Notes under the pieces: generated by a model
The model's database searches: none
Told to the model about the DNA's origin: nothing
The model's input: only the letters and a program-made list of their open reading frames with translations
Position numbers and translations under genes: made by a program
Source of the DNA: Candidatus Poribacteria bacterium
GTDB lineage: Bacteria; Poribacteria; WGA-4E; WGA-3G
Length of the DNA stretch: 64,000 bases
Reading direction: 5' to 3'
Assembly: GCA_964291315.2 (NCBI GenBank)
Contig: OZ219753.1
Location: forward strand, 768,001 to 832,000
Shown here: positions 43,823 through 48,534 of the stretch, one piece after another
How positions within the stretch are numbered: position 1 is the stretch's first letter
How the letters are laid out: each line of letters begins with the position of its first letter

Positions 43823-43893
43823 CGTAGCATAGACTGTCTGTGTGTGCCAGATAGGTTTTGGCGTGCGGGCACAATCTAACAGGTGATGCTACG
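43823..43893. repeat. Inverted pair of GTAG-type REP-like elements overlapping the Rpn stop codon
   Basis: CGTAGCATAGACTGTCTGTGTGTGCC...GGCACAATCTAACAGGTGATGCTACG. Confidence 0.5.
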
Positions 43894-44884
43894 AGGCCGA
43901 GGCGTTTCCGTTGGTGTCTCGGTTTGTGTCCAACGCCTCTTGGAATGCTGCGAGACTCGCTGTCTGCAGTGCCTCACGGCGGAGTGCCTTGAGGCGCAGT
44001 AGAGACTGAATACGCCGCAGGGCAGATGCCACCTGTGATAAGGCGCTATCATTGAAACGCAGTTCCAAGATCTCAAGGATGCCTTCTATGAGGCTCTCTC
44101 GGGCACCCCGCTCTATGCCTTGTTCAAGGCCCTCCTCTCTACCGCGTTCTATGCCTTGCTCAAGGCCGCGTTCTATGCCTTGCTGAAGAAAATGTTGAAT
44201 AACCGATGACTCTTGCATGATCGCCTCCATTATCGTCTCACGAATCGACGAATACTCAAATATCAAGCCACTCAATATCGCTAAATCTGTCAAATACTCA
44301 CCTTTTGACGCGCTTTCCACATATACTGACTCCGCAACCGATACGCACCGCCGAAGCCACGCATCGCCCGACGACGCATCTGCCGAGGGACGCATCAACG
44401 GCGTAAACGGGATCAAACCTTTCACACCCGAATCCAGAAAATGAGAACCCTCTATATCATACAGACGGATCACCTTGTAGCCGATGCGCACCTCATACCC
44501 AGGAGCCGATTGGACATACGCCCCCGGATCCCGCCGTCCCGCACGCGGATGCAAGTAGATCACGTGTGAGTAAATCGGCAGTTGAAACTGCTCTATGCCC
44601 CTGCCGATGTAGCCCGCCATCCGATACTGCATCGGCACTGCTCCGCTGTCCCGCGTCTGTATCTCAAGATGCACAATAGCGGTTTCTCCAGCGAGGTTCA
44701 CCTCTATGAAGCTATCGGCTCTGTTTGATTGGACGGTCGGCTGCTCGGTCTCTAAGACGCGGATTGCCTCCACATCCGCTGTGCCGAGGGCGAACTCTAT
44801 CCAGTCCTGTGGGTTTTGATGGATAATCGCTTTTGAGACGGTATCGTATTGGCTGTGCCGCTTAGATTCTTGTTGATCTCGCAT
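43889..44884 (-). CDS. Rpn/YhgA-like recombination-promoting nuclease (putative transposase)
   Basis: YD..K, RADS, HLEIQ (PD-(D/E)XQ type), MQYRM; EQGIERG repeats near the C-terminus. Confidence 0.82.
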   Translation of the reverse strand: MRDQQESKRHSQYDTVSKAIIHQNPQDWIEFALGTADVEAIRVLETEQPTVQSNRADSFIEVNLAGETAIVHLEIQTRDSGAVPMQYRMAGYIGRGIEQFQLPIYSHVIYLHPRAGRRDPGAYVQSAPGYEVRIGYKVIRLYDIEGSHFLDSGVKGLIPFTPLMRPSADASSGDAWLRRCVSVAESVYVESASKGEYLTDLAILSGLIFEYSSIRETIMEAIMQESSVIQHFLQQGIERGLEQGIERGREEGLEQGIERGARESLIEGILEILELRFNDSALSQVASALRRIQSLLRLKALRREALQTASLAAFQEALDTNRDTNGNASAS

Positions 44885-45164: not shown

Positions 45165-46325
45165 TTATGTCAGAGTTGTTACGACACCGAATCCGATTCG
45201 GATGCCCATTTTCTTCACCTCAAACCGAGTGCCGATCTCCATCACCAGGGGCGTGTCAAGTTCGACTTTGACATGTGCGTAAGTGCCTGGTGTGATGAGT
45301 GAAAGTTCAGGTGGGAGGTGGAGGCGTGATGGTATATCAACACTCCATAGGTGTATGTGGGGTCTATCGTTTTCGATAAGCGGTATATGTGTGCCGCTCT
45401 CTTCAGATGTCAGTAGATAGATGAGTGCGTTAAACTCAGAGTGGGATTTGAGGGTTTTGGGTGTACAAAGTACCTGCCCGATGGACAGCCAGCCGGGTTC
45501 AGATTCGACGGATACTTCGTCTTCTTTAATACCGGTAACCCGCGTTTTGATTCTGTCCCCGTTACCGACAACGTCTACTGCTTGTCCGACGGCGAGTTGT
45601 CCGTGTATAATTTCGCCCCGGACAGATACGTAGTGTTTTGTTTCCTCGGTAATCTCATAAATTGGCATGATAAGGGGTAAGCGTTGTCTGTTCACAGGTG
45701 GTGGCATTGTGCTATTCATGGTGGCGATCAGGTCAACGATCGGTTGCCATTGATCAGAAGTAATCTTATCTTTTTTATAGTTTAGTGCCTTACGTGCGTC
45801 CCCGACGACGATAGGTGCTATTTTTTTTGTTTCTCCATAGGTATTTAAGAGTTCATTCATCTCTTGTTTGCAGATGTCCACGATTTCGTCGTCTCCGGGA
45901 AGTCCTGCTGTATTAAGAAAAGAGATTATCTGTGGTAGGTTCAGCTGTTTGGCGAGTTGGAGATGTGCTTCGGAGTCGGGTGTGACACCCTGAATAGCGT
46001 TGACTACCCAGATTGCTGCGTGGATTTTCGGAGAGCCGCTGATCAGCATTTTGACAATATCAGTGGACGTTTCGCAGTCGATTTGTGTATAAAATTTGCC
46101 GCTGGTTTCATAGGCGATGGCGCGGTAGGTGATGCCGACGCCCTCTCGGATTGGGTGATGAGTTGGGTTCTGTGCGTTAAAATCGGTGTCTCTGTCTGTG
46201 TGGATTGCTCCGATTCTTGCGATAACTTTCGTCATTGCCGCGGTCAGCGTTGTTTTACCGTGTCCATCTGCGCCGAGGGTACAGATGGGCAGTCTGTTAT
46301 GTGTATATTGGTTTTTTTCTGTCAT
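45165..46325 (-). CDS. Divergent EF-Tu paralog with degenerate GTPase motifs
   Basis: Collinear with EF-Tu over three domains (GHGKTTLTAA, YET, IDC, GQVL..P, Y.L..EE.G.H.P, PG, GTRF, G.GVV), but G2, G3 and G4 are altered. Confidence 0.85.
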   Translation of the reverse strand: MTEKNQYTHNRLPICTLGADGHGKTTLTAAMTKVIARIGAIHTDRDTDFNAQNPTHHPIREGVGITYRAIAYETSGKFYTQIDCETSTDIVKMLISGSPKIHAAIWVVNAIQGVTPDSEAHLQLAKQLNLPQIISFLNTAGLPGDDEIVDICKQEMNELLNTYGETKKIAPIVVGDARKALNYKKDKITSDQWQPIVDLIATMNSTMPPPVNRQRLPLIMPIYEITEETKHYVSVRGEIIHGQLAVGQAVDVVGNGDRIKTRVTGIKEDEVSVESEPGWLSIGQVLCTPKTLKSHSEFNALIYLLTSEESGTHIPLIENDRPHIHLWSVDIPSRLHLPPELSLITPGTYAHVKVELDTPLVMEIGTRFEVKKMGIRIGFGVVTTLT

Positions 46326-46620
46326 TTTTTTTCTCCTGTTACGTGGAATTTTTCACTTGAGGAATGGTTCACATTATAGCAAAAAGTTGGCAATCGTGCA
46401 ATGCAGAAAAACTTGCGAAACGCTGAGAGGCATGCTAAACTATTTTCGTTATTGAATCCGTGCTGCCATGTCATTGGCAGGGAGTGTTTCGACTGTTAGG
46501 GATTCTCCATGCTCCAGAGTGGTTGAGCGTAATCATGAACCACCGTGAATCAGGTTACTTATGGGTGGGTGTACTGAAAAACTTTGTGGAAGGTTGAGCA
46601 GGTGTGCCTGTTAGGGGAAA

Positions 46621-47163: not shown

Positions 47164-48534
47164 ATGCAGATAGACTATTCTTTTGGTATTGCTGACCTGA
47201 AGTCTCAGATTGAGAATCTTTTTGAATGTTCAGGTCGAAAGATTTTAGCGATTGAGGACACGTGGTCGCCTGAGAGGGGCACGCCGGTGTTCACTGTTGC
47301 GGGTACGTATACGACCCGTGGTTGGACGGAGTGGACACAAGGTTTCCAATTTGGTTCAGCTATTCTTCAATTTGATGCTACAGGTGATGAGCGGTTCCTT
47401 GAAATCGGTAGGCGGAACACGATTGAAAAAATGGCCCCGCATGTCACACACATGGGTGTGCATGACCATGGTTTTAACAATGTTTCAACTTACGGTAACC
47501 TCCGTCGCCTGATGCGGGAGAGATTGATTCCGTGGGATGGCAGCGAGATGGATTTCTATGAGCTGGCGCTAAAGGCTTCCGCTGCTGTGCAGGCGAGTCG
47601 GTGGACTCGGATTAGAGATGGAATGGGATATATTGCCTCCTTTAATGGTGGGCATTCGCTTTTTTCAGACACTATCCGTTCTTTACGGGCGTTGGCGCTG
47701 GGCCATACGCTTGGTGCAGTGCTTATGGGTGAAGGAGATGTTGCCATTAGTCTCTTGGAGCGTCTGCTCCAGCATTCACAGACGACAGCAGCGTACAATG
47801 TCTACTATGGTGAGGGGCGTGATGTTTTTGATTTGCGTGGACGGGTGGTGCATGAATCTATCTTCAATACGGCCGATGGCAACTATCGTTGTCCGAGTAC
47901 GCAGCAGGGCTATTCACCTTTTACGACTTGGACGCGTGGTTTGGCCTGGATCATCACGGGCTATGCCGAGCAGCTGGAATTTTTTGACACACTTTCTGGA
48001 GAAGACCTTGAGCCTTACGGTGGGTATGCGCTTGCAACGGCGCACATGCGCAAAGCTGCGGAAGCTACTGCTGATTTTTACATTGAGAATACCGCGCAGG
48101 ACGGGATTCCGTATTGGGATACGGGTGCCCCTGGGTTAGCGAAGCTGGGTGATTATTTGTCTGTGCCTGCGGATCCGTTTAACGACCTTGAACCGGTGGA
48201 TAGCTCTGCCGCAGCGATCGCTGCACAAGGGTTGATTCGTCTCGGTAATTACCTCCAAAAACATGGTGAATCAGACGCAGGAGCTTCCTATTACCAAGCT
48301 GGGTTAACAGTAGCGAGGACTCTTTTCGCTGAACCGTATCTGTCTGAATCTGCGGCAGATCAGGGGTTATTGTTGCATTCGGTGTATCATCGTCCGAATG
48401 GCTGGGATTATGTGCCGGAGGGTCGGAAGATTCCGTGTGGTGAGGCTTCTATGTGGGGGGATTACCATGCTCGCGAACTTGCGGTGCTGTTATGGCGGGA
48501 GATAACTGGTAGGCCGTATTTGACGTTTTTCTAG
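47164..48534 (+). CDS. Glycoside hydrolase family 88-like protein
   Basis: WTQGF, HDHGF, QGYS..TTWTRGLAW, PYWD, DSSAAAIAA, WGDY. Confidence 0.85.
   Translation: MQIDYSFGIADLKSQIENLFECSGRKILAIEDTWSPERGTPVFTVAGTYTTRGWTEWTQGFQFGSAILQFDATGDERFLEIGRRNTIEKMAPHVTHMGVHDHGFNNVSTYGNLRRLMRERLIPWDGSEMDFYELALKASAAVQASRWTRIRDGMGYIASFNGGHSLFSDTIRSLRALALGHTLGAVLMGEGDVAISLLERLLQHSQTTAAYNVYYGEGRDVFDLRGRVVHESIFNTADGNYRCPSTQQGYSPFTTWTRGLAWIITGYAEQLEFFDTLSGEDLEPYGGYALATAHMRKAAEATADFYIENTAQDGIPYWDTGAPGLAKLGDYLSVPADPFNDLEPVDSSAAAIAAQGLIRLGNYLQKHGESDAGASYYQAGLTVARTLFAEPYLSESAADQGLLLHSVYHRPNGWDYVPEGRKIPCGEASMWGDYHARELAVLLWREITGRPYLTFF

Follow-up and report, generated by a model that had tools for sequence, protein, structure and literature searches.

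What keeps a copy of elongation factor Tu (EF-Tu) in a genome once the motifs of its GTPase cycle have been eroded? The question is raised by a gene in the window, by which we mean the whole analysed stretch of 64,000 nucleotides from contig OZ219753.1 of a Candidatus Poribacteria bacterium; nucleotide positions below are those of the window unless a contig is named. The gene (45165..46325, minus strand; identified by translation of its open reading frame [ORF], Pfam and NCBIfam) encodes an EF-Tu-derived pseudo-GTPase paralogue, the protein P0001, of 386 amino acids plus a stop codon. We hold, with a probability of roughly 0.7, that P0001 is a pseudo-GTPase that acts by binding, is open in shape, and has as its likely kind of partner a protein that reads the GDP-bound or nucleotide-free (apo) state of EF-Tu. 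Loss of the switch and a selected noncatalytic role are the supported part of this reading; the identity of the partner is speculation. That the protein's action rests on binding and not on a nucleotide cycle, and that it does not deliver aminoacyl-tRNA, seems to us highly probable, because the full fold is kept, the switch II glycine and the conserved G2 threonine are lost, guanine recognition is lost in this genome, the aminoacyl pocket is lost, selection acts on all domains, and the protein persists in one branch after loss of the P-loop.

An EF-Tu fold with altered G motifs

The earlier note, made from the letters of the sequence, had described a full-length EF-Tu paralogue with an intact 386-residue ORF and an AGGAG ribosome-binding site, and both descriptions are borne out. 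The ORF opens with ATG on the minus strand, a strand that the earlier note did not name, and contains no internal stop; AGGAG lies seven nucleotides 5' of the ATG (46333..46337, minus strand; on the plus strand CTCCT, then seven T, then CAT). Pfam matches GTP_EFTU at residues 13–195 (8e-21) and GTP_EFTU_D3 at residues 292–385 (8e-14), and gives no match for domain 2. Four NCBIfam EF-Tu models span residues 4–385 at 220–228 bits, far below their curated cut-offs of 449–522; the score is 220.6 against an equivalog cut-off of 522.4 bits for TIGR00485 and 228.5 against 449 for PRK00049. Among the translational GTPases, the EF-Tu models match best (1e-65 to 1e-67), followed by EF-1alpha (2.5e-14), SelB (6e-10) and EF-G (7e-9). 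The best solved structures found by sequence are all EF-Tu (E approximately 1e-58), with homology over residues 3–385. An AlphaFold2 model built from alignment A1 is confident (predicted local distance difference test [pLDDT] 89.8, predicted template modelling score [pTM] 0.85) and places a strand at residues 55–60 in the former switch I. In Foldseek this model superposes on solved EF-Tu structures at template modelling (TM) scores of 0.84–0.90 over approximately 390 columns. P0001 thus has the three-domain architecture of EF-Tu by Pfam, by the predicted model and by structural comparison.

All three domains lie on the minus strand: a degenerate G domain (approximately residues 1–205, 45711..46325; delimited by Pfam GTP_EFTU and AlphaFold2 secondary structure), a remodelled domain 2 (approximately residues 206–291, 45453..45710; delimited from alignments) and domain 3 (residues 292–386, 45168..45452; Pfam GTP_EFTU_D3). 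The motif changes listed in the earlier note are all present and hold up in alignments against canonical EF-Tu. In G1, GHVDHGKT has become G18-ADGHGKT25 (46251..46274); the His-Val-Asp is replaced and the consensus GxxxxGK[ST] is still matched, so phosphate binding may persist in this protein. G2 reads R60-EGVGIT66 in place of ERGITI. The G3 or switch II remnant D83-CETS87 (canonical DCPGH; 46065..46079) keeps the Asp and has lost the Pro-Gly and the His, so that P0001 has neither the G2 Thr nor a DxxGH. In the G4 remnant N137-TAG140 (canonical NKxD; 45906..45917), the Lys and Asp of guanine specificity are gone, and G5 is changed as well, from GSAL to G175-DAR, a change beyond those first listed. 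P0001 therefore lacks both guanine-recognition motifs, NKxD and SAL.

The determinants of aminoacyl-tRNA binding have fared no better. As had been claimed, the domain 2 segment EMFRK...GDN.G..LRG is largely deleted: the alignments show a gap of approximately 19–20 columns between K267 and E268 (nucleotides 45524/45525), i.e., a deletion of approximately 20 residues. In addition, PIEDIF has become PIYEIT and ERGQV has become SIGQV. Across the family, the Glu-Asp of the amino acid pocket is replaced by YE, RE or RK, and the Arg of ERGQV by I, V or P; the His before VEYET, the Glu-Asp-x-Phe of PIEDIF and the Asn of IKNM are altered, and GRxxPFFxGYRPQFYFRT is largely altered. We take these pocket and domain 2 and 3 residues to be the aminoacyl-tRNA determinants of EF-Tu. 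Domain 2 has acquired conserved motifs of its own that are specific to the family, namely QGxLAVGQxVDIVGKGDRIKTR, EPGW and PK.

Some of these changes are shared by all the relatives and others are local. The earlier note had taken the catalytic His to be lost, which is true of P0001 and does not extend to the family, since most of the genus keeps DCETH; the family-wide change in G3 is loss of the Pro-Gly of DxPGH, and the His is missing only in this genome and a few relatives. One of 36 aligned paralogues (G036) has a D-x-x-G string, as does the database representative P0121. The T66 near G2 is replaced by A or I in 4 of 21 sequences of the genus and is absent from the other families. The GKT of the P-loop is present in 33 of the 36 sequences and deleted in the other three, all of subclade f4b. 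Within the genus the G4 remnant varies freely, as NTAG, NTGG, NTIG, NTDS, NTDG, NTDD or NTSD.

A clade-wide gene under purifying selection

How widely is such a gene kept, and how strongly? In a first scan of 40 related genomes plus the window's own, an orthologue 70–80% identical to P0001 was found in 23 of 24 other genomes of the genus, and orthologues approximately 30–53% identical in the other three families of the order; each genome also had a canonical EF-Tu, approximately 32% identical to P0001. We then ran a profile of 17 members (A1) over 176 genomes of the phylum and checked the gaps. The paralogue is present in 156 of the 159 genomes of the order: 111 of 112 in family f1, which includes the window's genome (G000), 11 of 11 in f2, 28 of 29 in f3 (one copy being split over two contig ends) and 6 of 7 in f4. 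It is a single-copy gene, and each genome also has one canonical tuf. Completeness of the three genomes that lack the paralogue is 86%, 94% (with 15% contamination) and 85%. In the sister orders f6 and f7, two genomes carry a related, less degenerate form (328–342 bits). Nine of the 12 genomes of f8–f11 match at the level of a canonical protein (E 5.5e-64 to 2.3e-80), and the sequences from f8 (G049) and f9 (G057) are canonical tuf; the other three of these 12 and the three genomes of f5 gave no match at E <= 1e-40. Among 1.84 billion representative proteins the A1 profile retrieved only four family members, P0121 (638 bits), P0122 (363), P0123 (350) and the fragment P0133, below which come sequences of canonical EF-Tu, or of divergent EF-Tu unrelated to the family, at 253 bits or less. 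Within the reach of these data, no member of the family lies outside this part of the Poribacteria.

Two side observations came from these searches. The canonical tuf of the f9 genome (G057:C394:3998-5179, locus L083) has one in-frame TAA and is read as two ORFs, whether through an assembly error, as a pseudogene or for another reason. The top 150 representative hits include many proteins of EF-Tu length without DxPGH, most of which keep NKxD and GSAL. Thirteen of them (P0130, P0135, P0136, P0140, P0149, P0153, P0163, P0165, P0166, P0171, P0193, P0263 and P0264) fall outside the Poribacteria clade in the tree described below, and we do not claim a wider family of degenerate EF-Tu-like proteins. 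P0135 has one close relative cluster (81% identity) and beyond it only approximately 54%-identical proteins named "elongation factor Tu"; this protein, at least, is rare and isolated.

A maximum likelihood tree of 46 sequences (LG+C20, quick search) places all 11 sampled paralogues in one clade (Shimodaira–Hasegawa-like approximate likelihood ratio test [SH-aLRT] 100), to which three intermediate forms are joined (SH-aLRT 99). The seven canonical Poribacteria tuf genes form a separate clade (99). Placement in a translational GTPase tree, which the earlier note had proposed, thus gives a monophyletic paralogue clade that groups with EF-Tu sequences. The branching order of the paralogues tracks the genome families, and the gene is inherited vertically. 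The quick tree does not settle where the paralogue clade attaches relative to the canonical Poribacteria tuf. Holding all 21 Poribacteria sequences together costs 4.0 log-likelihood units and is not rejected (approximately unbiased test, p = 0.43), so an old tuf duplication within the class or phylum is compatible with the data, though not demonstrated.

The sequences can be arranged along the tree as a series of losses. The sister-order forms (f6, f7) still have an intact NKID at G4, with GHFGHGKT at G1, SGIPI at G2, DCVNH or DCVDH at G3 and GSAQ or GSAK at G5. In f3, G1 is GG(V/A)GHGKT, G3 is D(G/A)xSH and G4 is NKAE; in subclade f4a, G4 is NKAD (one genome) or NEVD; in f2, G1 is GGAQAGKT and G4 is NQTE. 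In f1, which contains the window's genus, G1 is GA(D/H/L/T/P)GHGKT, G3 is DCE(T/M)(S/H/Y), or DCDTY in one case, and G4 is NT followed by two variable residues. The three f4b genomes have lost GKT altogether and have approximately 10 residues inserted after helix B. This series makes the switch elements, i.e., the G2 Thr and the G3 Pro-Gly, the earliest and universal losses. Guanine recognition (G4, G5) was lost later and separately in different families. In f4b, to judge from the deleted motif, phosphate binding has gone too, and the protein has been retained and conserved. The domain 2 segment is missing in f1, f2 and f4a; in f3 its place is taken by an insert of approximately 20 residues that looks of low complexity (seen in L031 and L035–L038), and the sister-order insert is longer. 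In the f4b loci L040 and L042, the insertion after helix B is GAFGSSNRLAG-like, and approximately five further residues are inserted in domain 3.

The ratio of nonsynonymous to synonymous substitutions (dN/dS; Nei–Gojobori, 210 pairs from 21 genomes of the genus) has a median of 0.094 for the paralogue (range 0.049–0.178) and of 0.052 (0.017–0.097) for canonical tuf in the same pairs; dN of the paralogue is approximately twice that of tuf. The ratio is 0.099 for the G domain, 0.106 for domain 2 and 0.089 for domain 3. It is lowest among the regions tested for the stretch from the P-loop to switch I (0.072) and highest among the segments tested within the genus for helix D (0.164). Pairs within f2 give 0.09–0.12, and the one usable pair in the subclade without a P-loop (f4b) gives 0.134, at a dS of 1.56 that is near saturation. 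The reading frame is intact in all 36 aligned orthologues. The paralogue is kept by purifying selection in all three domains, and this selection on a protein with missing G motifs is what marks it as a pseudo-GTPase. The earlier note would have been refuted by a lack of orthologues and a dN/dS near 1; clearly, neither is the case. Its core proposal, a pseudo-GTPase that selection keeps for a new role, has strong support from the distribution, the constraint on every domain and the monophyly, while the particular roles that it listed (EF-Ts sequestration, a decoy for toxins, a scaffold) find no support in anything that we computed: PADLOC detects no defence family, and the neighbours are not conserved across families. 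Could the gene be a decaying or nonfunctional copy, or an annotation artefact? P0001 does score below every curated EF-Tu cut-off, and its NCBI relatives are called "hypothetical protein", but the intact frames, the near-universal presence, the low dN/dS and the confidently predicted fold already refute this idea, to which we give practically no weight.

The window's genome (4.4 Mb in four contigs, 95% complete) also contains the canonical tuf that the earlier note had asked to be confirmed. It lies on another contig (C2:99428-100633), directly after a match to EF-G (fusA), scores 727.6 bits, over the cut-off, and its product is 31% identical to P0001. Codon adaptation relative to the ribosomal protein genes is 0.772 for the paralogue (82nd percentile of 747 crude ORFs) and 0.797 for tuf, on a scale whose 5–95% spread in this genome (0.695–0.791) is too narrow for the values to weigh much. 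EF-Ts is encoded by a single copy in all 41 genomes examined. In the window's genome its gene (C4:744024-744614) lies approximately 24 kb before the window and encodes a short form of 197 amino acids; its codon adaptation is unusually low (0.685, 3rd percentile of the same 747 ORFs), a weak observation given the narrow range.

Predicted shape, conserved residues and possible partners

What might an EF-Tu that presumably no longer cycles bind? The predicted shape gives one indication. The P0001 model fits GDP-bound or open EF-Tu structures (6mij, 1tui, 1efc, 1d8t, and 8rdw with Balon) at TM scores of 0.86–0.90, and the closed form 4lby at only 0.53, with a root-mean-square deviation of 10.6. 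As a control, a model of the genome's own canonical EF-Tu (from 12 canonical sequences) fits the closed structures 1exm, 1eft, 1ttt and 4lby at 0.88–0.89 and the open ones at 0.46–0.54. The contrast is a hint consistent with a paralogue fixed in the open, EF-Tu·GDP-like arrangement. In the open arrangement of EF-Tu the tRNA cleft is absent.

The conserved residues give another. Across five subgroups, 41 alignment columns are conserved with the same residue as in canonical EF-Tu, and 30 further columns are conserved in the family and different from canonical EF-Tu. The first set includes core strands, K92 of helix B, L124 of helix C and the acidic residues D145, E147, E155 and E158 of helix D. 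Helix D itself (approximately residues 143–163, 45837..45899, minus strand; AlphaFold2 helix 146–163) has these four and C152 as family-invariant residues in alignment A1 and the conservation map; C152 is specific to the family and adjoins the conserved acidic residues. The second set includes C15, S75 (in YETSG), W193 (in W-Q/K-P-I), Q241/L244, G254/G256/R258 (in VGKGDRIKTR), E276-P277-W279 (in EPGW), K290, H313, D320, L326-W327 and K372. Many of these residues peculiar to the family fall in domains 2 and 3, and as a set they point to a binding surface that is new or has been remodelled.

It is tempting to propose the following mechanism. The paralogue would sit permanently in the open, EF-Tu·GDP-like shape, and would be bound by a partner that normally reads GDP-bound or nucleotide-free EF-Tu via the face of the G domain that helices B, C and D make up. 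Known EF-Tu·EF-Ts structures show that EF-Ts recognises this face and the open shape of EF-Tu. Were EF-Ts the partner, a complex that nucleotide cannot dissolve would be a dead end, and would set how much free EF-Ts is available for recycling EF-Tu. EF-Ts is the leading single candidate, although the odds are clearly against any one named partner, this one included. Less likely still, and offered tentatively, is the larger proposal that the paralogue is a new kind of bacterial translation regulator: a mimic of EF-Tu, locked in the GDP or apo shape, that would bind EF-Ts or some other reader of EF-Tu·GDP in a complex insensitive to nucleotide and would thereby set translation capacity in these slow-growing symbionts; the clade would then preserve a path from a working GTPase through a switch-dead nucleotide binder to a protein without a P-loop.

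Several observations weigh against this reading. The open/closed contrast hangs on one control, and the state that AlphaFold chooses is not a measurement; the control model, moreover, is of low confidence (pLDDT 71.9, pTM 0.62, with residues 9–22 and 43–99 below 50). Helix D is the least constrained segment in the genus (0.164), and its conserved residues could be structural. Neither the His of DCPGH nor the His of helix C (in TREH) is conserved, the latter being H in f1 and Q in f2, f3 and f4a; we take both to be central EF-Ts contacts. A predicted co-fold of the paralogue (A1) with EF-Ts (alignment A3) scored 0.27 and 0.12, against a mark of 0.32, and counts neither way. No neighbouring gene is conserved across families, so that gene context backs no role in translation. 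Finally, 33 of 36 sequences retain the P-loop, the G3 Asp and the G4 Asn, so most members, P0001 included, may still bind nucleotide or phosphate, and the function of the paralogue could depend on it.

This last point leads to the alternative that we take most seriously, although we judge it to be well short of an even chance and it overlaps the binding model: that the paralogue is still a nucleotide binder, either a non-hydrolysing pseudo-GTPase or a binder of ATP or of nucleoside triphosphates promiscuously, with the nucleotide needed for folding or partner binding in most of the clade. Besides the retained GxxxxGKT, G3 Asp and G4 Asn, the low dN/dS between the P-loop and switch I would be explained by such a role, and in f2 and f3 an N-x-x-E stands in place of NKxD, with NKAD surviving in one f4a genome. 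The N-x-x-E form resembles that of the ATP-binding YchF/OLA1 proteins. In P0001, however, the residues that recognise the base are gone (NTAG, GDAR), and the G4 remnant varies freely in the genus. Three f4b genomes keep the protein without GKT (dN/dS 0.134 from a single pair), which makes nucleotide dispensable for at least that version and argues for a function independent of a nucleotide cycle. Another, improbable idea is that the protein carries or binds one particular RNA, e.g., a deacylated or unusual tRNA, through domains 2 and 3 and independently of nucleotide. These domains are as constrained as the G domain and contain the invariants EPGW, K290, H313, D320, L326-W327 and K372, and relatives of EF-Tu and SelB that serve a single tRNA do exist, such as MM1309, as described in the accessible part of PMC4329189. 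Against it, residues that we assume to be the canonical tRNA determinants are changed or deleted, the model takes the open form without the tRNA cleft, and there are no tRNA genes beside the paralogue in loci L007, L080 and L081.

The pseudo-GTPase might instead serve as a decoy or guard against EF-Tu-targeting agents, be they toxins (contact-dependent or type VI), Doc-like kinases, phage proteins or antibiotics from the sponge microbiome that bind EF-Tu, an explanation that we consider about as doubtful as the RNA carrier. Sponge microbiomes are dense and competitive, and the model resembles open EF-Tu in complex with Tse6 (4zv4, TM 0.89) and with CdiA/CdiI (7vmc, TM 0.86); but every GDP-form EF-Tu scores alike. 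Accessory defence genes are usually patchy and fast-evolving, whereas this gene is near-universal, single-copy and vertical, under uniform purifying selection. Most surface epitopes differ from those of canonical EF-Tu, to which the protein is 31% identical; no PADLOC family matches at E <= 1, neighbours related to defence or mobile elements are not conserved, and a scan of viral contigs that matched 36 patterns yielded no relative. Smaller still is the likelihood that the paralogue is the EF-Tu-like partner of a Balon-type hibernation factor, or occupies the factor-binding site on idle ribosomes. Slow-growing symbionts may plausibly need hibernation, and the model overlays the EF-Tu(GDP) that accompanies Balon on hibernating ribosomes (8rdw_H, TM 0.88; 8v9l_x, TM 0.87); here again all GDP-form EF-Tu structures score alike. 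In the window's genome, which is 95% complete, neither Host_attach (PF10116) nor eRF1_3 (PF03465) is matched; these are the families to which we believe Balon is linked.

Related systems and surroundings of the gene

EF-Tu is among the most conserved and abundant bacterial proteins, and its duplicates normally stay near-identical through gene conversion. The canonical protein (tuf, TIGR00485) shares with the paralogue its three domains, length, fold (TM up to 0.90) and P-loop consensus, and differs in having intact the G2 Thr, the G3 Pro-Gly(-His), the G4 Lys and Asp, the G5 Ser-Ala-Leu and the domain 2 segment, in lying in a fusA–tuf operon and in being modelled closed. A eukaryotic parallel is Ski7, a pseudo-GTPase derived from eRF3/Hbs1 that has kept the fold, lost catalysis and taken a binding or scaffold role; the pseudo-GTPase classes of eukaryotic GTPase families offer another. 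Unlike Ski7, the paralogue descends from bacterial EF-Tu, has no extra domains and belongs to a within-clade series that ends in loss of the P-loop. Pseudo-GTPases derived from translational GTPases are thus known in eukaryotes, and what the Poribacteria offer is a bacterial, EF-Tu-derived family with an unusually complete record of decay. Among bacteria, actEF-Tu (Streptomyces EF-Tu3) is likewise a lineage-restricted, distinct EF-Tu-like subfamily beside canonical tuf; actEF-Tu and EF-Tu3 keep their GTPase motifs. Compared by description, the Poribacteria paralogue differs in lacking them and is confined to Poribacteria genomes. The accessible part of Atkinson 2015 (PMC4342817) presents actEF-Tu as the only EF-Tu-like subfamily that stands plainly apart from EF-Tu, and proteins of this type as condition-specific, working translation factors. 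The archaeal SelB-like proteins (aSelBL, MM1309) are paralogues of the EF1 family with a divergent G domain and an unknown or unusual substrate, according to the accessible parts of PMC3037878 and PMC4329189, and in the latter MM1309 still binds GTP and charged tRNA. P0001 scores only 38 bits against the SelB model and groups with EF-Tu.

In the literature that we searched on EF-Tu paralogues, pseudo-GTPases and Poribacteria EF-Tu, which did not extend to subscription journals, we found no published description of this paralogue; the one paper there to name both EF-Tu and pseudo-GTPases concerns septins. The accessible part of a sponge holobiont proteome preprint (10.64898/2026.10.20.760564) mentions EF-Tu only generically, and that of PMC8546597 does not mention it. 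Relatives of P0001 (source "Candidatus Poribacteria bacterium") are named "hypothetical protein" in NCBI and "elongation factor Tu" in records of the Joint Genome Institute; neither name fits, a practical point for annotation. Across a whole clade of sponge-associated Poribacteria, a duplicate of EF-Tu has thus dropped the switch, base recognition and, in one branch, the P-loop as well, while selection keeps it about as strongly as it does many housekeeping genes; the family is a natural experiment on the passage from core enzyme to pseudoenzyme. If its partner were EF-Ts or the ribosome, it would represent a previously unknown layer of elongation control.

The paralogue stands apart from any conserved gene cluster. 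When ORFs from 20 loci of approximately 17 kb and from the window were clustered, only the EF-Tu-like gene recurred in all 21 (the paralogue in 20; L041 holds canonical tuf). Its neighbours are unrelated metabolic genes shared only within a genus or family, among them cytidylyltransferase-like, AMP-ligase, acetyl-CoA carboxylase (ACCase) alpha, PhyH, histidinol dehydrogenase, NamZ and haloacid dehalogenase (HAD) hydrolase genes, and in f1–f3 the paralogue is flanked on both sides by genes of the opposite strand. Upstream of it, Rfam gives no known RNA family, only one chance-level match to a long noncoding RNA (E 0.67), and no sigma-70-like site was found in the intergenic region.

Two nearby ORFs in the window deserve mention. 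One, of 331 amino acids (43889-44884, minus strand), sits on the same strand as the paralogue, 280 bp downstream, and contains a repeated GIERGLEQGIERG-like stretch; its only family matches, to Yae1_N and FliH models, are weak and all fall below cut-off. The closest complete relative (L043) lacks this ORF at that position and has an AMP-ligase-like gene directly abutting the paralogue, so the ORF looks like an insertion in the window's genome. The other, of 456 amino acids (47164-48534, plus strand), matches no Pfam or NCBIfam family and lies on the upstream side of the paralogue, beyond a divergent 168-amino-acid cytidylyltransferase-like gene. The pair formed by these last two genes is absent from the other families, but recurs in the four other loci of the genus that we examined.

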